DNA of 64,000 nucleotides from Candidatus Bathyarchaeota archaeon (GCA_963775685.1 CAVZJV010000014.1:64001-128000); one strand, 5' to 3'; shown: positions 575 to 21,769, numbered from the stretch's first letter. Program-made: numbers and translations. Notes: generated by a model not told the origin, from the letters alone.

Positions 575-3500
575 CTAAGTCATTTGCCGTTCAGCTCTTG
601 GGGGGGGCAACCGTACAATAAAAGTTGTTCCTTTGCCCTCTTGGCTCTCAAATGTTACGGTGCCGCATAATGCTTCAGTCATCCGCTTGATTACTGCTAG
701 ACCAAATCCTTGGCCTTTGGCTTTTGTGGTGAACATTGGAGTAAACAACTTGCCTTTCACTGCTTCAGGAATGCCGACACCTGTATCCTTAACAGATATG
801 ACGGTATCATTTGCTTCTTTGTATGTGCGAATGGTTAGTTTGCCGCCCTTTGGCATGGCTTGAACAGAATTATTCACCAAATTGTACAATATGCGATTTA
901 TGAAAGTGGAGTCAGCCACAACTTTTGCAGTATCTACTTTAACACTTACTTTAACATTCTCTGGCAAACCGTTCTTTGATAGCAAGTCATCAATTATAAG
1001 TTTCAAATCAGTTTCTTCAGCATTTGGCTTAAGAGGCCTTGCAAAATCTTGCAAATCAGCAACAATTTTGTTAATGTAATCTATATTCTTTTCAATTTCT
1101 GTTAGGCTTTCTTGGATATTATTTTTCTCTTCCCCTTCAGGAATTGAATCCAACTCTGTTTTAGCCAAATAAACATCCCCAATAATAGCCTGCAGTGGAT
1201 TTCGGATATCATGACCCACCATACCCGCAGTAGCTCCTATAGCTGCTAAACGTTCAGCATCCTTCAACTGCACGGCTCTTTGATTAGCAAGCTCCTCCAT
1301 CTGATTAGCATACTCTTCAAGAAGGACAGCTGATTCTTCAAGCTTTAGTTGCATTTGAATTCGTTCAGTAACATCAACATTCGACTCCAACACCTCCACT
1401 ATTTTGCAGTCAGATCCAAATTTTCCCAACCAATAACTTTGCACAACCAACCTACTGCCATCTTTACAAATGTGGACAATTTCTCCTGACCACTTCCCCT
1501 TGGTTCTGAGTTCATTTTGAATCTTCTTAAGCGATTGTGGCAATTGGGTCTTCAACAACAAATTAGCATCTTGCCCTATGGCTTCTTCTTTTGTCCAACC
1601 GTAAAGTCTCTCAGCACCTTTACTCCATAAAGTAACAGTACCCTCAAGCTTTCTGACAATTATAGCGTCGGGACTAAGATCAATAAGCTCAGCCTGCCTT
1701 GCCACAGCTTCCTCAGCTTTCTTGCGTTCAGTAATATCTCGAACTACTGAAACTGATCCAGTAATGGAACCATTCTTATTTCTGATGGGAACAGAACTGA
1801 CTATGCGGGTCTTCAACTCTCCACTCCCGGGAGTTCTTACCATTTCCTCTTGATTTTTTACGATTTCTCCGCTCAGTGCACGCAGAGGTGGAGCTTCCTC
1901 AACAGGTCTTGGGCTGCCATCAGGACGATACACTTCCGAAGATGCAGCTAAGTTTTCAACGTCTGTATTTGAAGAGGCATTTAACTTGAACTCTTTAACC
2001 GCCGACGGATTAGCTAAAGTAAACTTTTTTTCTGCTGCATCAGCAAACCAAATCTCGTCCATTATACCGTTCAACACCGATGACAGCTTATCTCTCTCTT
2101 GCTGCGCTACATCTTTTTGGTGTTCCAACTCCGCTTCAGCTTTCTTGCGCTCAGTAATATCCACAGAAAAACCGATTACACCAATGATATTGCCCTCTGC
2201 GTCCCGGTATGGAATTTTGTCAGTTAGAACCCACCTCTGCCCCTGCGCGGATTGCATCTTTTCTTCAATGCCGACCTTAGCTTTGCCCGATGCAATGACT
2301 TGTTTGTCGTCACTCCAGAAGGCTTCCGCCTCTTCCTTAGGATATATCTCGAAAAGCGACCGCCCTTCAAGCTGCTCTTTAGGCAACCCCATAATCTCGG
2401 CAAACGACTTGTTTACCCGGATGAAATGGTTTTCGAGGTCCTTGTAAAAAATTAACCCTTGGGATGAGTCAATTATTGTTTGCAGTTCATCCTGCTTTTT
2501 CGACAAAGCTTCTTCAGCTTTCTTGCGCTCAGTAATATCAACGAATGCTCCAAGGCAACCACGCACGTTTCCAGCGTCATCCAATAGGGGTTTGGCATTC
2601 CCAAGAATCGTAATCTTTCTGCCACTGGGAACTATTACTTCTAGCTCAGAGTTTTTGATTTCGATGTTTTTTGCGGCTGCTTCCTGCATAGGAAGCTCTT
2701 GGGGCATCAATTCTTTTCCATTCCGGAAAAACCGCCTAGTAGTATCTTGTGCGCTTCCACTTGCTGGTCCAGCTGAAACGTTCTCCTCACCCTCTGCTTC
2801 GTAGAAAGTGTTTGCAGCCTGATTACCAACAATTACTTTGCATTTTGGGTCCTGGGATACCCAAACAGCGGCAGGAATGATATCCATAAGTTTTCGTAGT
2901 TCTTCAGCACTCTGACGAGCGTGTTCCATACTTCTTTTGAGCTCTTCTTCGGCTTTCTTGCGCTCGGTGATGTCCTGAACCATCCCAATTGAACGAATAA
3001 TTTTGCCAGTTTTGTCTCGAACATGATCACATTTTTCGTAGACAACTCTTATTTCACCGGTTGATTTTCTAACCACTCGATGTTCAATTTCATAAGTATC
3101 TCTACCCTCACGTAAAGATCCCAAGTATGCAGAGTCTACGGCTTCACGGTCACTTGGATGAACCGCCTGCAGAAATGCTTCGTACGTTGCGTCGAATTCT
3201 TGAGGTTTCAAACCAAAGATTCGGTAAATTTCATCTGACCACGACAACTTATTTTTTACTAAGTCAAGTTCCCAACTTCCAAGATGTGCAATCTTCTGAC
3301 TCCTTTTTAGACTTCTCTCACTTTCCAGCAAATCTTCTTCGGCTTTTTGGCGTTTAGTAATATCTCGGAAAATTAGTACTACTCCGGTTGTTTTGCCGTC
3401 TTTATCTTTTATAGGTGCTCCGCTATCGTCAATTGGAATTTCCGACCCATCTTTTCGTATCAAAACGGTGTGGTTAGCCAAGCCTACAGCTATACCTTCC

Positions 3501-4171
3501 CTAAGAACTTTAGCGATGGGGTTTTCAACCTCCAAACGAGTTTGCTCGTTTACGATGTTGAAGACTTCTTTCACGGGCTTCTGCACACTTTCGCTCAATG
3601 TCCAACCGGTTAATTCTTCAGCCACGCGGTTCATGAACACTGTTTTGCCTGATGTGTCTGTTGCGATTACGGCATCGCCAATACTAAATAATGTTGTTGA
3701 CCAACGCTGCTCACTTTCCTGCAGCGCTTCATCAGCATTCTTACGCTCTGTGATATCTCGTCCTATGCCAACAATTATTTGTTTTTCAGTTAGCGGATGA
3801 GAGTTCCATGATATCCACCTGTACGAGCCATCTTTGCATCGGTATCTGTTTACGAAGAGAACTGCGTTCTTGCCTGTTTCGTGAGCTCTAAACACAGCTT
3901 GAGTTTTTTCAATGTCGTCTGGATGAAGAAAATCATAAAACGGCTTTGAGATTACCTCTTGTTTTGTCCAGCCTAAAATTCTTTCAAACGAGGGATTTAC
4001 TTGTTTAAAACGGTTGTCAAATCCAACAAGAACTAGCAAATCCAGAGAGTAATCGAAAAACAAGTCAAGTTCAAGTTCTGTTGGCTTGCTTTCAAAGGTT
4101 GCAGGATTACTTTCTTTACTTTCAGGCAAAGAATTCACCAGATCAGCATGAAGTAACCTGTGCGCACGCAA
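575..4171 (-). CDS. Multi-PAS domain sensor histidine kinase (soluble)
   Basis: About six PAS/PAC repeats ending in DITERK, H-box GHDIRNPL, N-box NLVNNSVQA, G-boxes DTGVGIP and GQGFGL. The true start may be slightly downstream. Confidence 0.95.
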   Translation of the reverse strand: MRAHRLLHADLVNSLPESKESNPATFESKPTELELDLFFDYSLDLLVLVGFDNRFKQVNPSFERILGWTKQEVISKPFYDFLHPDDIEKTQAVFRAHETGKNAVLFVNRYRCKDGSYRWISWNSHPLTEKQIIVGIGRDITERKNADEALQESEQRWSTTLFSIGDAVIATDTSGKTVFMNRVAEELTGWTLSESVQKPVKEVFNIVNEQTRLEVENPIAKVLREGIAVGLANHTVLIRKDGSEIPIDDSGAPIKDKDGKTTGVVLIFRDITKRQKAEEDLLESERSLKRSQKIAHLGSWELDLVKNKLSWSDEIYRIFGLKPQEFDATYEAFLQAVHPSDREAVDSAYLGSLREGRDTYEIEHRVVRKSTGEIRVVYEKCDHVRDKTGKIIRSIGMVQDITERKKAEEELKRSMEHARQSAEELRKLMDIIPAAVWVSQDPKCKVIVGNQAANTFYEAEGEENVSAGPASGSAQDTTRRFFRNGKELMPQELPMQEAAAKNIEIKNSELEVIVPSGRKITILGNAKPLLDDAGNVRGCLGAFVDITERKKAEEALSKKQDELQTIIDSSQGLIFYKDLENHFIRVNKSFAEIMGLPKEQLEGRSLFEIYPKEEAEAFWSDDKQVIASGKAKVGIEEKMQSAQGQRWVLTDKIPYRDAEGNIIGVIGFSVDITERKKAEAELEHQKDVAQQERDKLSSVLNGIMDEIWFADAAEKKFTLANPSAVKEFKLNASSNTDVENLAASSEVYRPDGSPRPVEEAPPLRALSGEIVKNQEEMVRTPGSGELKTRIVSSVPIRNKNGSITGSVSVVRDITERKKAEEAVARQAELIDLSPDAIIVRKLEGTVTLWSKGAERLYGWTKEEAIGQDANLLLKTQLPQSLKKIQNELRTKGKWSGEIVHICKDGSRLVVQSYWLGKFGSDCKIVEVLESNVDVTERIQMQLKLEESAVLLEEYANQMEELANQRAVQLKDAERLAAIGATAGMVGHDIRNPLQAIIGDVYLAKTELDSIPEGEEKNNIQESLTEIEKNIDYINKIVADLQDFARPLKPNAEETDLKLIIDDLLSKNGLPENVKVSVKVDTAKVVADSTFINRILYNLVNNSVQAMPKGGKLTIRTYKEANDTVISVKDTGVGIPEAVKGKLFTPMFTTKAKGQGFGLAVIKRMTEALCGTVTFESQEGKGTTFIVRLPPPRAERQMT

Positions 4172-12345: not shown

Positions 12346-12849
12346 CTTCTGCCAATTTTCGTCTCAGAGGTCTTTTACAAAAAGAAAAAAGGGAAGAATC
12401 TGCAGAAAAGTGAGAATTGTACATCGCCACCCTGATGGTTCCGAATGACTCCAGCTGAAACTTATTCCATGCTAGACGACGGCCACATTTGCCCCATGCT
12501 TAACTTTTAGGGTTCAGAGTTTTTCAATACATCAAGTAAACTTAAAGCTTCTGGAAAAGCCAGATCACCTTAATATGCGCCTTCCTATAAAAACGCTAAA
12601 ACAAGGGAACTGCAAAAGCGCGATGAGCTTCTTTTTAACAAAGTTAAAACAAGCCAAGATAAAAAAAAACAAAAAGGATTTGTTAGATATTCATAACCAA
12701 CTGTGTTAAAACGCTTAATATGATACTTGTCCATTCCTGATTTGTGTGTTGTTGTCTCTACACAGTCACGTATGTTAATACGGCCATGTTTCTAGATATT
12801 TCCAGTAAGTCAATCAGTTACTTGGGTCTCTGATAATTTTGGTTTGGAG

Positions 12850-13023
12850 GTGATTTTCATTACGGAAAAAAATAAGAAAGGGGTGTTTGTCGCTGAGCAG
12901 AAGAAAAAGAGACGCGAAATAATTCAAGAAGGTAAAAAGCAAGTGGCTATTCCGCCAGATGTTGGAGATGTAGAAAAGAAGGCTTTAGCCCAAACAGGCG
13001 ATGATGCAACTTCAGGATGGTGA
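12850..13023 (+). CDS. Small unannotated protein (about 57 aa) ending in TSGW
   Basis: Open frame (M)IFITEKNKKGVFVAEQKKKRREIIQEGKKQVAIPPDVGDVEKKALAQTGDDATSGW*, GGAGGTG at 12846, T-run downstream. Confidence 0.6.
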   Translation: MIFITEKNKKGVFVAEQKKKRREIIQEGKKQVAIPPDVGDVEKKALAQTGDDATSGW

Positions 13024-13182: not shown

Positions 13183-13440
13183 TTGGAAGAAGTTATAATT
13201 GAAATAGGGCAAGTCATACATTTCTTCTCAAAAATCAACGTTGCCATAGTCGAATTAACGTTGCCCCTCTCCATCGGCGACCGCATCCTCATAAAAGGTC
13301 CCTCAACAGATTTTGTCCAAATCGTTACTTCGATGCAGATAGATCGCAAAGAAATTAAAAGAGCCGAAGGCGGACAAAGTGTAGGATTGAAGACGATTCG
13401 GCAGCCGCGGGAAAAAGACGTTGTTTATAAGCAACTTTAA
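13183..13440 (+). CDS. Translation elongation factor-like beta-barrel (U32 peptidase C-terminal-like) small protein
   Basis: IGQVIHFFSKINVA...LSIGDRILIKG..TDF.Q.V.SMQID...AEGGQSVGLK, with GGAGG RBS. Confidence 0.8.
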   Translation: MEEVIIEIGQVIHFFSKINVAIVELTLPLSIGDRILIKGPSTDFVQIVTSMQIDRKEIKRAEGGQSVGLKTIRQPREKDVVYKQL

Positions 13441-14589: not shown

Positions 14590-14605
14590 GTTTAATAGTA
14601 TTTTT
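14590..14605 (-). promoter_or_regulatory. BRE/TATA-like promoter for the radical SAM gene, overlapping the MFS stop codon
   Basis: AAAAATACTATTAAAC lies about 25 nt upstream of the ATG at 14567, the geometry of a leaderless transcript. Confidence 0.5.
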
Positions 14606-15905
14606 CTGCAAGTTCCTCAGCTTTCTTATATTCTTCACTTTTTTCTTGCTCGGGCTTGTTCTTTTGATGTTTCTTGGTTTTTTCCTCTTCGTTCTGAGCA
14701 ATTCTCTGAGCCTTCTCAATATACTTTTTCAGCTCCATATCTTTCATGCGTTTTTCAGGCAAGGTTTCAGGCGCATACAGCAAGGGTAAGACAGCTAAGA
14801 AAAGAAATACGCTTGCAAAAGAGAATATGGGTATTTGACTTATGTCAGGTACATAGAATGCAAAAACTTTGGTTAGGAAACTGGAGAATACATAAGGTAA
14901 AGCGCCTAAGAAGTATAATTTATCGCTGTTTCTGGCTTGAGATAGGTCGCCCCATATTATGAGCAGAAATACTATATTGAATATTCCCCATGCAATTCCG
15001 TCTGATACCACGTAAAAGTATCCAGCCAAGTTTATATCTGGAAAAAGTCCTAAGATAGCATATCCGATTCCTAACATAATGAAGCCTACAATCGTTAAGC
15101 GTTTGCGACCGAAAAGGTCAGCAACAAATCCGCATGTGACAGCAGTGACTGCCATAATGATGTTTTCTAAAACGTAAATTAGAAAATTGTAAGTTGGACC
15201 AGATCCTAAAAGGTGGTTCTGAATTGGAACCGTCATATAATTTACAAGGGACACCATACACCATGAAACAAAGTAGAAAATAAACGACCTGTTAGACAGA
15301 ATATCTTTGAATTTAACCTTGTAAGTTTCTTTGCTACTTGGTTCTTCCACATTAAATCCACAAAAGACTAAAAATCCAAATAATCGTATAGCGGAAAGAA
15401 CGACGCAAGCTAAAACAACATCGCTTATTATAAATGCGCCAAGCACAGAGAAAAGCAAGCCCATTAACAGAAGAGTAATCCCGCTAATTTTTGCACGGTT
15501 CTCTACCATAGTGTGGCTGGAGAAATACCCCATAACTACAGGCATTCCGACTCCAAAATAGGCTCCAAAAACACTTGAAATCACAAGAGTGCCAGTTACG
15601 CTTGATAGATCCATTGCGAGAGGTAGAAATGAAAGAAAAACACCGCTTAACATCCATAAACTGAGGAAGTTAGTTCGTTTTTTTAATTTGTCAACTGCAA
15701 ATGAACCTACGAATGCTAAAATTGCTATTGAAACTGCGTTCACGCCAAAAACGATAAGTGTTAAGGGGCCAGTATTCGGATCTATTTTATCCGTTAGAAT
15801 CTTGAGGGTTTTGAAAACTAGCAAATACCAAACAAAGGCGTTTCCTACTAAGAAAACATTTGTCGTAGTTAGTTTTAGAGTTGGCTTAACATCTCCCAGA
15901 GGCAC
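14592..15905 (-). CDS. MFS-like 12-TM membrane protein with charged cytoplasmic tail
   Basis: About 12 hydrophobic helices, motif A GFVADLFGRKR, PETL after the last helix and a K/E-rich tail. Confidence 0.85.
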   Translation of the reverse strand: MPLGDVKPTLKLTTTNVFLVGNAFVWYLLVFKTLKILTDKIDPNTGPLTLIVFGVNAVSIAILAFVGSFAVDKLKKRTNFLSLWMLSGVFLSFLPLAMDLSSVTGTLVISSVFGAYFGVGMPVVMGYFSSHTMVENRAKISGITLLLMGLLFSVLGAFIISDVVLACVVLSAIRLFGFLVFCGFNVEEPSSKETYKVKFKDILSNRSFIFYFVSWCMVSLVNYMTVPIQNHLLGSGPTYNFLIYVLENIIMAVTAVTCGFVADLFGRKRLTIVGFIMLGIGYAILGLFPDINLAGYFYVVSDGIAWGIFNIVFLLIIWGDLSQARNSDKLYFLGALPYVFSSFLTKVFAFYVPDISQIPIFSFASVFLFLAVLPLLYAPETLPEKRMKDMELKKYIEKAQRIAQNEEEKTKKHQKNKPEQEKSEEYKKAEELAEKYY

Positions 15906-16005
15906 TTGCTGGACATCCTTAAAGTTGTAACTTTCTAGGTGTTTTTGATAATTAAGTATTAAGGATTGGTAAAATTGATTTGAAATATAGTTTATGTAGG
16001 TAACC

Positions 16006-16046
16006 TTTTAAGCATATTTGTACAACACATCTACTTCGAGGAAGGT
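16006..16046 (+). promoter_or_regulatory. TATA-like box and RBS for peptide gene 1
   Basis: TTTTAAG at 16006-16012 and GAGGAAGGT at 16038-16046, ahead of the ATG at 16051. Confidence 0.6.
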
Positions 16047-16050
16047 TGCT

Positions 16051-16095
16051 ATGAAGGCAAACAACAAAGTAACTCGTTCAAGTGGATGGGTTTAA
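16051..16095 (+). CDS. 14-aa candidate precursor peptide 1, MKANNKVTRSSGWV
   Basis: Has ATG, RBS and TATA. Its C-terminal SSGWV is identical to peptide 2. Its stop overlaps the convergent prenyltransferase stop. Confidence 0.75.
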   Translation: MKANNKVTRSSGWV

Positions 16096-17108
16096 GAAAA
16101 CCCGTTCGCAAAAAAAGCAAAGGGAGCGGAAAGCAATATTTTTAGCTCCTCCCATTTTTCTTCTTCTAAGCTTTTCTGTAAGATCCCAACAATACAATTA
16201 GCTGATACGTTTAATTCTTCAAGAAATTCCTGAACTTCAGGGGTCTCAAAAACTAAATCGATTATTTTTTCTTGTGCAGAATTATCAGATAAGTCCTGGC
16301 TCAAAAGAGGAAGAAGCATCTTTCTAGTTTGCAAATTCTGCAACGCATAGATTAAAGGTAAAGGTAGGCATCCATTTTTCAGCCGATTAGCCACTTCCAA
16401 AGGGTCAAAAATGTCTGCGCACTCATCAGATACAAGCGAAACAACCCCGTAACTTCTACCAAATTCACCTAACTCTTCCACCAAATCTTGTTCTGCCCCC
16501 CCAACGATGGCACCGATTTTCATAGTTAATTCAGGAACAACTGCCTTCAACCTGATTATGTCATAAAATTCATTTGGAGACAAATCCAACCGAGCTTTCA
16601 AGCTAGCCTCTAAGGTTTCTGCCATGGAAATCTCCAATATTGCCTCAGATATCAAACTTCTAATTTGCTTGCCCTGACCTTTGGGAAGCTTATCGCATTC
16701 ATTATGCAATTGCGTTAACCCTTCAGCCAAAAGAATGTCGCCAGCTAATATTGCTGCGGTTTCGCCGAATTTGCCAAAGACAGTTGGCTTGGGACCTTTA
16801 AAGGTTGACTTATCGATAACGTCATCGTGTAAATCAGCGGCTCCAGTTATTAGTACGATTGCTTTTCCAAAAGGAATTGCCTGTTTAACGTTTCCTCCTA
16901 CTGCTTTGCATGAGATGACTATAAGTGCAGGAAAAACAGGCATGGTGTTATGAAGAGTTATTTTTGAGAAGTGCCTTAGTGATTGAGAAATAATGCTCTT
17001 GTCTTTGTTTGCTGAGATTATTTGCTGTCTCGCTTGTTTTAGGGCAAGACCACCGTTTTCCCTAAAAATCTTTTTCATTTTCCGAATTAGAGCCTGATTG
17101 GAGGGCAT
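16092..17108 (-). CDS. Divergent polyprenyl synthetase-fold protein, candidate ComQ-like peptide Trp prenyltransferase
   Basis: FARM LHDDVID and AILAGD are retained. The RRG loop is replaced by FKG, KT by KA, and the second Asp-rich motif is degenerate (SDECAD). Confidence 0.8.
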   Translation of the reverse strand: MPSNQALIRKMKKIFRENGGLALKQARQQIISANKDKSIISQSLRHFSKITLHNTMPVFPALIVISCKAVGGNVKQAIPFGKAIVLITGAADLHDDVIDKSTFKGPKPTVFGKFGETAAILAGDILLAEGLTQLHNECDKLPKGQGKQIRSLISEAILEISMAETLEASLKARLDLSPNEFYDIIRLKAVVPELTMKIGAIVGGAEQDLVEELGEFGRSYGVVSLVSDECADIFDPLEVANRLKNGCLPLPLIYALQNLQTRKMLLPLLSQDLSDNSAQEKIIDLVFETPEVQEFLEELNVSANCIVGILQKSLEEEKWEELKILLSAPFAFFANGFS

Positions 17109-17150
17109 TTGTATCAGGGTTTAATTGTTTTGAGTAAATATTTGGTTTTT

Positions 17151-17160
17151 GGAAAAAAAT
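17151..17160 (-). terminator. Oligo-T terminator after peptide gene 2
   Basis: Minus strand ATTTTTTTCC about 20 nt after the stop at 17182. Confidence 0.4.
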
Positions 17161-17181
17161 GAGGCGTTGGAAAGGGTTTTT

Positions 17182-17241
17182 TTATACCCATCCCGATGAG
17201 ATTGGTTTACCGCGGATATTTTTGCCATTTTTGCTTACCAT
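17182..17241 (-). CDS. 19-aa candidate precursor peptide 2, MVSKNGKNIRGKPISSGWV
   Basis: GAGGTG RBS 7 nt upstream of the ATG and 25 nt downstream of the protease stop. Shares C-terminal SSGWV with peptide 1. Confidence 0.8.
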   Translation of the reverse strand: MVSKNGKNIRGKPISSGWV

Positions 17242-17266
17242 ATTTTTTCACCTCACATTTGCTAAT

Positions 17267-18118
17267 TTAATTTAAGAAACTTTGTATCCAGGTTAAGATA
17301 CTCTGTGTATCTATCCTAGTGTGATATGTTATTCCTGCACAGTTTGCATTACGTACGTACGCGTTAATGGCAAGGACAATGTCTTGAGTGCCGCCGTTAT
17401 AGATTACTGGGCCGCCTGAGTCTCCAAATGCCACGCCGCCTTTGCCTTGGCTGGGGTTGGCTGTTAATTTGAGGTATTTGTCACTTCCAGCAAAGTTCCC
17501 AGATACTATTTTGGCTTGTGCGGAGTTGCATGATAATGTTCCAACCAACGAGTTAACAACGCCGTTGTCTTTGGGAGTCGCTTGGAATTGAAGACCATAA
17601 CCTACCTCCTTCAAGATAGTTTTATTATCCAACATATCAGAGAAACCTGCTCGAGGTAAAGCTGGAAAATCTTCAACACCTGCAACTGCTTGAACAAGTT
17701 TTATTAATCCTATGTCGCTTGTTTCAAATTCGTTATTGCCTGAAAAAGAGGGGTTATACAGCGGATAGATTATTGGAAAACCATCATAAATTGTATTTGC
17801 ACCATAATAGGTGATTTTTCCCTTCTCAAGAGTATAGCTAATTGGTCCCTTATCAAAACAAACGCTGACTGCTTGCACACCGACCAGACTGTGACCTGCC
17901 GTCACCATAACTGTTGACGAAATCAAGAAGCCTGAACAATAACCAATCGGGTTAGTTTTCGCTTCGTCACTAAAAAGCACGACTACCCCAGTATACGGAG
18001 TTGAATCTGGGCGAATGTTTCCTGTTATTCCGTATACTGTGCCAGTAAATAGAGCCAAAGATGCCAAGATTGGCAGGATGGTTAACGTGATAGCTTTGGT
18101 TGTTTTCAAATTATCCAC
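17267..18118 (-). CDS. Secreted S1 (chymotrypsin/trypsin-like) serine protease
   Basis: Signal peptide and catalytic triad motifs TAGH, DIGLI and GDSGGP. Confidence 0.9.
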   Translation of the reverse strand: MDNLKTTKAITLTILPILASLALFTGTVYGITGNIRPDSTPYTGVVVLFSDEAKTNPIGYCSGFLISSTVMVTAGHSLVGVQAVSVCFDKGPISYTLEKGKITYYGANTIYDGFPIIYPLYNPSFSGNNEFETSDIGLIKLVQAVAGVEDFPALPRAGFSDMLDNKTILKEVGYGLQFQATPKDNGVVNSLVGTLSCNSAQAKIVSGNFAGSDKYLKLTANPSQGKGGVAFGDSGGPVIYNGGTQDIVLAINAYVRNANCAGITYHTRIDTQSILTWIQSFLN

Positions 18119-21361: not shown

Positions 21362-21769
21362 TTAATGGCTCACTCTAGCGGGTTCTTCATGGTTCTTAAG
21401 CTTCTCTTCTAAAAGAACCAGCAATTCCTGAGGTTTCACGGGCTTAACCAAATAAGCGTCTGCGCCTTCATCAAGAGCTTTAACGCCAGTTTCAAGTGAC
21501 GGGAACCCCGTAATCATTATTTTGACGGTGTGTTGGAGTTGCTTTTTGAGTTTCGCTAATAACTCGGTGCCATCCATATCCGGAAGTCTGATGTCTACCA
21601 ACGCTAAGTCAAAATGGTCGTTTCCCGCTTTTTCTATGGCTTCTTTACCTGTTTCCGCAGTTTCAATCTCATAACCGCTTTTTTGGAGAATGCGTGTGAA
21701 GGTTCGAAGTATTGATTTGTCATCGTCAACAACAAGTATTGTTTTTTTATGTGCAGCCAATTCTAACAT
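21362..21769 (-). CDS. Single-domain response regulator receiver
   Basis: ILVVDDD, DIRLPDMDG, MITG, YLVKP. Confidence 0.93.
   Translation of the reverse strand: MLELAAHKKTILVVDDDKSILRTFTRILQKSGYEIETAETGKEAIEKAGNDHFDLALVDIRLPDMDGTELLAKLKKQLQHTVKIMITGFPSLETGVKALDEGADAYLVKPVKPQELLVLLEEKLKNHEEPARVSH

Follow-up and report, generated by a model that had tools for sequence, protein, structure and literature searches.

Bacillus ComQ, an enzyme with the isoprenyl diphosphate synthase (IDS) fold, prenylates a tryptophan (Trp) near the C terminus of the ComX precursor, which is about 55 amino acids long, to give a quorum-sensing pheromone, and the polymorphism of comQXP sorts into pherotypes. To our knowledge, prenylation of peptides by enzymes with the prenyl synthase fold has been described only in a few bacterial systems (ComQ, PalQ, ChrPC, and Ord1), and we know of no case in which peptide-based cell-cell signaling has been shown in Archaea. 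The stretch of DNA considered here (the window; 64,000 nucleotides from a Candidatus Bathyarchaeota archaeon, GCA_963775685.1 CAVZJV010000014.1:64001-128000) carries a gene for a divergent trans-IDS-like enzyme (PT), which is bracketed by two micro-open reading frames (micro-ORFs), peptide 1 and peptide 2, that both end in SSGWV and is followed by a gene for a membrane protein of the major facilitator superfamily (MFS). Such micro-genes exist, are conserved, are under protein-level selection, and are tied to PT and MFS. Judged from its sequence, the locus may be a peptide prenylation module of the ComQ/ComX or PalQ/PalX kind, a reading to which we assign a probability of about 0.5; a module resembling those that make ribosomally synthesized and posttranslationally modified peptides (RiPPs) is the simplest account of all of the evidence.

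PalQ of Paenibacillus alvei is a trans-IDS-related enzyme far from the canonical subfamilies, and PalX has an NHLP-type leader domain of about 70 residues and a basic core peptide (DNVRRFFW), with the requirement that the acceptor Trp be the last residue (PMC10853753). PalQ favors Gly before the acceptor Trp, and the Trp farnesyltransferase Ord1 (PDB 9v4g, 9v4h, and 9v4i) acts on free tryptophan (PMC13290415). A Gln beside the second Asp-rich motif (SARM) is the proposed indole NH-binding residue of ComQ, PalQ, and Ord1 (PMC13290415). The same source, a 2026 review of peptide prenylation, mentions archaea only with regard to lipoproteins in the parts available to us (PMC13290415). No description of an archaeal ComQ-like system was found in the accessible portions of the literature, in agreement with the original prediction, whose author was aware of none.

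The Bathyarchaeia module resembles ComQ/ComX, which works with the kinase ComP, in pairing an IDS-fold enzyme with an adjacent small Trp peptide, action on the peptide being only proposed in the module, and in the strong divergence of enzyme and peptide between close relatives. ComQ/ComX belongs to the Bacillota, whereas the module is archaeal, its peptide gene is antisense with its own promoter, and MFS takes the place of comP/comA in most loci; its peptides have 12 to 20 residues, far fewer than the ComX precursor, and their Trp is mostly penultimate. The features of a comQXPA locus (a ComX precursor matching PF05952 and a ComP/ComA pair) were not found at the window locus, and there was no PF05952 match in the genome, which was to be expected, given how short and divergent the peptides are, and carries no information. 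With PalQ/PalX/PalP, the module shares a trans-IDS-related enzyme remote from the canonical subfamilies, a Trp at the C-terminal end, Gly before this Trp, a basic peptide, and, in one of its clades, a kinase gene in the cluster; it differs in that its leader comprises 7 to 15 basic residues, one residue usually follows the Trp, and the PT family lacks the conserved Q197 that lies next to the SARM in PalQ. Ord1 likewise uses the prenyl synthase fold for transfer to Trp but keeps the RRS motif, the His, and the Gln of YQIRDD, which PT does not. Canonical archaeal geranylgeranyl diphosphate synthase (GGPPS), including that of Pyrococcus horikoshii (1wy0) and the genome's own copy, has the same all-helical fold and both acidic motifs but is universal in the family, whereas PT is accessory and fast evolving and forms a separate long-branch clade. 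Microcin C is a very small ribosomal peptide that is C-terminally modified and exported by an MFS pump; microcin C-type systems follow a similar logic, with a micro-gene, a C-terminus-tailoring enzyme, and an MFS protein for export or immunity at a single locus. Their tailoring enzyme is an adenylating E1-like protein, and none was seen at the locus, no search for a homolog having been made. With the proposed defining Gln absent and with differences in precursor, gene order, and partners, the module is probably not a member of the ComQ family as described in the literature.

Micro-genes beside the PT gene

The original prediction had described PT as bracketed by two micro-ORFs ending in SSGWV, and each of these elements was found in place (Table 1). 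Among the stop-terminated frames in all six reading frames of the 3.06-Mb genome, only four end in SGWV, and the only two that end in SSGWV are peptides 1 and 2, which lie 1.1 kb apart. The two tails are written in different codons (TCA AGT GGA TGG GTT versus TCA TCG GGA TGG GTA), so that they are identical as protein, and a DNA repeat does not account for the match. Peptide 2 (19 amino acids [aa]) falls under the 20-aa floor of the ORF listing and was read from the sequence and then verified. The ends of peptide 1 and PT share 4 nucleotides (nt) at their stop codons, and a Shine-Dalgarno (SD)-like site lies upstream of peptide 1.

Conservation of the micro-genes was assessed in two sets of related loci. 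The class sample comprised 301 genomes, in which homologs of PT (threshold, E <= 1e-30) were found in 58, concentrated in the family of the window (35/48) and a sister family (12/12). The first set consisted of 12-kb regions around 40 PT homologs, or 41 loci counting the window. The second came from a scan of one genome per species, which gave 269 stretches encoding a PT relative; the best 80 were examined and 78 were usable, with PT running off the contig in L131 and L137, and some of these loci duplicate first-set loci. Nearly all of the best 80 were labeled as metagenome-assembled genomes of Bathyarchaeota or Bathyarchaeia, and six were labeled otherwise (Sulfotelmatobacter, Limnocylindrales, Nanoarchaeia, Baldrarchaeota, Crenarchaeota, and "uncultured archaeon"). 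Searches of the ESM Atlas returned only the own Bathyarchaeota clusters of the proteins.

An antisense micro-ORF in the spacer between PT and MFS (type A, as for peptide 1) was present in 38 of the 39 first-set loci that carry both genes, and the 39th (L048) had the upstream peptide copy only. The type A stop codon lies between 26 nt before and 60 nt after the PT stop in the first set, and four of the 38 micro-ORFs start with GTG or TTG. In the second set, an antisense peptide was found in at least 72 of the 78 loci; L092, L125, and L149 had the upstream type only, L082 and L096 were not read in detail, and no peptide was found in L139. These counts were read by eye, whereas 59 peptides were picked automatically from the 78 loci. 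A strict automatic criterion (at least four Lys or Arg among the last 16 residues, an [ILVMPTA]R core, and Trp within the last six residues) selected 48 of the 549 short frames at the target site and 134 of the 38,873 short frames elsewhere in the same loci; because the criterion was set after the data had been viewed and the loci are related and partly duplicated between the sets, this enrichment is descriptive and not a formal test.

The peptides are 12 to 20 residues long overall, and most of the 59 picked automatically have 12 to 17. In the latter, Lys makes up 30%, Arg 18%, and Pro 10% of the leader, whose end is [P/L/I][I/V/M]R, and the tail that follows has three to nine residues, most often four or five. 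Trp occurs in the tail of 53 of the 59 peptides; it is the penultimate residue in 45, and in 28 a Gly stands before it. In the subclade of the window, the peptides have the form MK[KV]NNK[LI][IV]R-x-x-G-W-x, in which the last residue is free (Y, R, H, M, L, K, F, I, or V). The expectation of a Trp near the end of the peptide is borne out in 30 of the 39 first-set loci and in most of the automatically picked peptides but is not universal, as 9 of the 39 tails have no Trp.

Thirteen loci, including that of the window, carry both a type A copy and an upstream (type B) copy. The type B leader is conserved (x-K-N-G-K-I-I-R-G-K-P-[IV]), was found in 13 other loci, and usually follows the protease gene. 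Tails differ between loci and agree within the locus in 12 of the 13 cases (for example, SSGWV/SSGWV, TGWY/TGWY, SMGWW/SMGWW, WSGWL/WSGWL, and QAGWI/QAGWI), with the mismatch found in L081 (F versus Y). Of 59 tail residues that are identical between the two copies, 24 differ in codon, and in eight loci the hypervariable last residue is among them. Gene conversion would have carried the codons along, and matched tails with synonymous changes therefore require selection on both copies at the amino acid level. The two-copy loci provide the strongest evidence for probable expression of the micro-ORFs as protein.

A common layout was found upstream of the type A micro-ORFs, consisting of a TATA-like box (AAAGCTTTTAAG), a dyad-like element, (C)TGTNNAACA(G), the sequence ATACAG, and an SD site of the GGAGAAGG type. 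The first three elements were read by eye in 49 upstream regions, of which 42 have an SD-like site; the SD site lies 5 to 10 nt before the ATG. The spacing is as expected for a putative archaeal TATA box and start site. In the genome of the window, the composite promoter motif occurs twice, once at peptide 1 and once at an unrelated site that no ORF follows. The dyad-like element itself (window positions 16013 to 16034, + strand) sits between the TATA-like box and the presumed start site and is conserved across distant loci, which makes it a candidate operator for a regulator.

PT and its paired membrane protein

PT falls below all NCBIfam equivalog cutoffs (its best score is 95.6 bits versus a cutoff of 468), and none of its 15 NCBIfam matches is to a ComQ model. 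Its AlphaFold2 model has a pLDDT of 92.5; the best Foldseek match is the archaeal GGPPS 1wy0 (TM score, 0.78), and Ord1 follows at ranks 28 to 37 (TM scores, 0.68 to 0.69). By sequence, the best PDB match is again 1wy0 (63.3 bits), with Ord1 second (57.6 bits). H94, D95, D96, and D99 of the first Asp-rich motif (FARM) are invariant in 26 PT sequences, and K104, K188, D232 of the second motif (D/E-D/E-x-x-D), and R242 are invariant or nearly so across the family. The residues GGKRxRP, the second Arg of RRG, the His of PTVH, and the FQ pair line the site for isopentenyl diphosphate (IPP) in canonical enzymes. Relative to 1wy0, GGKRVRP is replaced in PT by HNTMPVFP, RRG by KG, the His of PTVH by Phe, and FQ..DDVLD by SL..DECAD, so that neither the canonical motif set (GGKRxRP, RRG, PTVH, and FQxxDDxxD) nor a score above cutoff is found. 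PT looks like a protein that binds a prenyl donor and no longer condenses IPP.

The same genome holds a canonical GGPPS (L003) beside an IPP isomerase, together with a second canonical paralog. Of 51 genomes of the family, 50 had a canonical GGPPS, with 63 to 83% identity, whereas PT is only 28 to 42% identical in the same genomes (83 versus 37% in G038 and 70 versus 42% in G277). PT was not found in 13 of the 48 genomes of its own family and is therefore an accessory gene. In a tree made with a quick method, in which the outgroup branches are long, the PT family forms one clade on a long branch apart from both canonical paralogs (99% support in the Shimodaira-Hasegawa-like approximate likelihood ratio test). 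Public annotations call the homologs geranylgeranyl or heptaprenyl diphosphate synthase or "polyprenyl synthetase family protein." Cofolding of the PT of L079 with a 35-residue ATG ORF containing the type A peptide gave a score of 0.02 (mark, 0.32), which speaks neither for nor against binding.

The original prediction had placed PT, micro-ORF, and MFS in one module, and the two sets bear this out. MFS follows PT in the same direction in 39 of the 41 first-set loci, the exceptions being L070, where it is divergent, and L073, which has none; it follows PT in 71 of the 80 second-set loci, and the nine without it comprise five that have a kinase instead, three at contig ends, and one with neither. 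Identity to the window copy of MFS is 27 to 42% and 34 to 52% in the two sets. Its median identity of 35 to 39% makes MFS as divergent as PT, compared with medians of 66 to 68% for the radical S-adenosylmethionine (SAM) protein and 74 to 79% for the leucyl-tRNA synthetase (LeuRS) encoded nearby; PT and MFS diverge about twice as fast as these two proteins and housekeeping GGPPS. Such equally fast divergence is a pattern suggestive of specificity-determining genes, and MFS is the predicted second core gene of the module.

Further copies of PT were seen in the same genome and in related ones. A second PT-MFS pair lies outside the window (L002, G000:C14:about 1,060,900-1,063,600, - strand); its PT is split over two reading frames, as in a frameshift or pseudogene, and an 88-codon antisense ORF in the PT-MFS spacer ends in ...KARKNNNPWMTGA. 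Tandem PT paralogs, 27 to 37% identical to the PT of the window, occur in L040, L042, L106, and L138. In these loci the peptide and MFS follow the second paralog only, and no peptide was seen between or upstream of the tandem pair in L040.

Neighboring genes and the kinase-linked clade

Table 1. Features of the PT locus in the window
Feature	Position	Strand	Match or remark
PT, trans-IDS-like enzyme, 338 aa	16092-17108	-	PF00348, 79.9 bits
Peptide 1, type A micro-ORF, MKANNKVTRSSGWV	16051-16095	+	Antisense at PT 3' end, divergent from MFS
Peptide 2, type B micro-ORF, MVSKNGKNIRGKPISSGWV	17182-17241	-	Between protease and PT, same strand as both
Promoter and 5' leader of peptide 1	16006-16050	+	TTTTAAG TATA-like box, TGTACAACA dyad-like element, putative start region, GAGGAAGG SD site
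MFS-family membrane protein, 437 aa	14592-15905	-	PF07690, 47.4 bits; codirectional with and downstream of PT
Secreted S1 (trypsin-fold) serine protease, 283 aa	17267-18118	-	PF00089, 44.7 bits; hydrophobic N terminus
Radical SAM/SPASM protein, TIGR04084	13437-14567	-	308.4 bits versus cutoff of 225

The MFS protein has about 11 to 12 hydrophobic segments, and the profile match confirms the 12-transmembrane MFS-like gene that had been reported as divergent from peptide 1. The secreted S1 protease was likewise located just upstream of peptide 2, which starts 25 nt past the protease stop, ends 73 nt before the PT ATG, and has GAGGTGA upstream; the protease translation shows GDSGGP and TAGH motifs. 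The proposal that this protease belongs to the module did not hold for its core, as the gene is present in only 2 of 40 and 11 of 80 related loci, where it accompanies the type B peptide. Cleavage by this protease after the conserved Arg, in the manner of trypsin, was considered and is unsupported: most loci have no protease, and its translation reads Gly, not Asp, six residues ahead of the catalytic Ser, so that Arg specificity finds no support either. LeuRS was considered as a self-resistance copy of an antibiotic target and was rejected, as the genome has a single LeuRS.

Elsewhere in the window, a 59-codon ORF (window 12844-13023, + strand) that ends in ...QTGDDATSGW lies beside a conserved 85-aa gene (13183-13440). 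It is 54 to 64% identical in five loci of the same genus (L049, L050, L051, L068, and L071), and its C-terminal Trp is kept in the window copy and four of the five homologs.

In five of the 80 second-set loci (L080, L082, L085, L087, and L096), a histidine kinase lies directly upstream of PT and there is no MFS. The kinase has about 444 aa, with five to six N-terminal hydrophobic segments followed by HisKA and HATPase_c domains, and is separated from PT by 33 to 74 nt in L085 and L080, the two loci for which ORFs were listed. The antisense peptide is kept in kinase-linked loci (for example, ...KKICTRVVKPSGWY). The five kinase-linked PTs form one clade (99%) inside an 18-row clade (98%) that holds the PT of the window. 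By analogy, the position of the kinase beside PT echoes the neighborhoods of comQXP and palPXQ. Peptide pheromones are usually received by multipass kinases that have no large loops.

Other two-component genes were noted as well. An orphan kinase of the same genome (L154, 4211-5635, + strand, corresponding to G000:C12:10710-12134) resembles the PT-linked kinases, with 32.6% identity over 442 aa and an N-terminal multipass domain, and is a speculative receptor candidate. A universal kinase receptor was considered on this basis, but the sensor domain was found in only 12 of the 301 class genomes, nine with PT and three without. Just beyond LeuRS, the window encodes a stand-alone response regulator receiver (21362-21769, - strand; PF00072, 104 bits), of which L071 has a 90% identical copy, and a 1,198-codon ORF (575-4171, - strand) has a histidine kinase core at its end (tblastn match at 605-1375).

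The peptide prenylation reading and its alternatives

For a module of the ComQ/ComX or PalQ/PalX kind, we infer the prenyl transfer, the acceptor residue, export by MFS, processing by the protease, and the biological role as follows. The micro-ORFs would be translated into precursors of 12 to 20 residues, each with a Lys/Arg-rich leader ending in [P/L/I]-[I/V/M]-Arg and a locus-specific tail. PT, with its IPP site lost, would bind an allylic prenyl diphosphate through the two acidic motifs and transfer the prenyl group (C5 to C20) to the tail; as with ComQ and PalQ, the Trp indole would be the most likely acceptor. MFS would then export the lipidated peptide or protect the producer from it, and the S1 protease, where present, may trim the leader. 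The product could be a strain-specific extracellular signal or a cationic lipopeptide weapon, and we lean toward a signal. Locus-specific, covarying tails together with the fast divergence of PT and the membrane protein fit a specificity system, whether of pheromone types or of an arms race.

Several observations weigh against this reading. The Gln three residues before the second acidic motif is absent from PT; the window enzyme has L225 there (S-L-V-S-D-E), and the column, which aligns with Q216 of Ord1 (YQIRDD), holds L, T, A, G, S, I, or F across the family. The ComQ-like prenyltransferase of the original prediction is thus recognizable in the IDS fold, the first Asp-rich motif, and the adjacent Trp peptide but not in the indole-binding Gln. 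Among the nine first-set tails without Trp, six have Tyr or Phe and three (ALPP, AGP, and IAP) have no aromatic residue at all, and 6 of the 59 automatically picked peptides also have tails without Trp; Trp therefore cannot be the sole acceptor, provided that the peptide serves as an acceptor in the first place. Unlike in comQX and palXQ, the enzyme and the main peptide copy are encoded on opposite strands, and the two most distant loci, L070 and L073 (about 30% identity), have no recognizable peptide. There is no kinase in the locus of the window itself, and the kinase-linked loci form one clade and hence count as one evolutionary event, albeit one near the system of the window. The likeness to ComQ, PalQ, and ChrPC is drawn from their published descriptions.

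Of the other explanations, the one that survives best, although it is unlikely, makes the micro-protein a partner and not a substrate, that is, a basic peptide that binds or regulates MFS or PT as a plug, activator, or specificity factor, with PT making or modifying an isoprenoid that is moved by MFS. The coinheritance and fast evolution of peptide, PT, and MFS would fit any physical partnership, the divergent control region is common to peptide and MFS, and the existence of tails that have no Trp speaks for it as well. The micro-proteins so far known to bind transporters, however, are mostly hydrophobic membrane peptides, whereas these peptides are highly basic and soluble. Furthermore, the kinase clade keeps PT and the peptide and drops MFS, which indicates that the peptide follows PT and not the transporter, and the loss of IPP site residues from PT points to an acceptor other than IPP.

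It is also conceivable, though quite unlikely, that other enzymes, for example, the radical SAM/SPASM protein or the protease, mature the peptide as the precursor of a RiPP or cofactor, with PT serving a separate lipid role. The TIGR04084 gene, which the original prediction had not mentioned and whose translation contains CNLQCKYC, starts 24 nt past the MFS stop and follows MFS in 25 of 40 first-set loci; SPASM enzymes often modify short peptides, and many such families are among the weaker profile matches of this protein. No description of the function of TIGR04084 was found in the accessible portions of the literature. Its distribution speaks against a role as maturase, as it occurs in 143 of the 301 class genomes, including families nearly without PT (32/71 versus 1/71 for PT in f19 and 14/43 versus 0/43 in f30), and in Sulfolobus acidocaldarius, the control genome. 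In genus g30 the gene is located away from the module, and it was found in none of the four g29 genomes, all of which have PT and the peptide. A gene that is common where PT is nearly missing and was not found in g29 is a conserved, lineage-specific neighbor and not part of the core, and the radical SAM protein was rejected as core maturase on this ground. It is, moreover, 60 to 84% conserved, whereas the peptide tail is hypervariable. An apparent MFS-radical SAM fusion in L045 and L054 was ruled out, a stop codon lying between the two genes in both.

Nor does it seem probable that the micro-ORF acts in cis, as a leader, arrest, or attenuator peptide or as part of an antisense RNA that tunes PT or MFS, for example, in response to the supply of Trp-tRNA. 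Such a role would suit a very short ORF with Trp codons near its end, a type A transcript that would run antisense into the 3' end of PT, a type B copy 73 nt upstream of the PT ATG, and a conserved dyad-like element in the promoter. The type A copy, however, has no downstream gene on its own strand, and neither PT nor MFS is a Trp pathway gene. Arrest motifs should be constant, whereas the last residues of the peptides vary strongly from locus to locus and, where a locus has two copies, match between them despite synonymous differences. An ordinary chain-elongating synthase, as the homologs are publicly annotated, next to chance frames is most improbable, as the position, start, stop, and motif of the micro-ORF are conserved across well over 100 loci with codon-level evidence of protein-level selection, and canonical GGPPS, nearly universal in the family and far more conserved, exists beside a PT that has lost its IPP site residues.

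Extended to its full form, the prenylation reading would have prenylated micro-peptides acting as pherotype-like signals in Bathyarchaeia, exported by MFS and sensed by multipass membrane histidine kinases, whose genes lie next to PT in one clade, with a ComQ-like PT that arose independently from archaeal GGPPS. This remains a tentative proposal, which we regard as possible but doubtful. If it is true, neither quorum sensing by a peptide pheromone nor a prenylated RiPP would have an earlier example in Archaea.

If confirmed, the module would be the first trans-IDS-like peptide prenyltransferase system in archaea. A family annotated as "geranylgeranyl pyrophosphate synthase" is tied to an unannotated micro-gene with a variable, selected tail, and even without prenylation, a conserved gene of only 14 residues that has its own promoter makes a useful example for the annotation of small proteins in archaea. 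If the prenylation reading is true, PT would be a new biocatalyst for the lipidation of Trp that recognizes its substrate differently (no Gln, a penultimate Trp, and a very short leader), and the peptides would form a new RiPP class from an abundant uncultured lineage of sediments and soils, one that would give a handle on social behavior in Bathyarchaeia.

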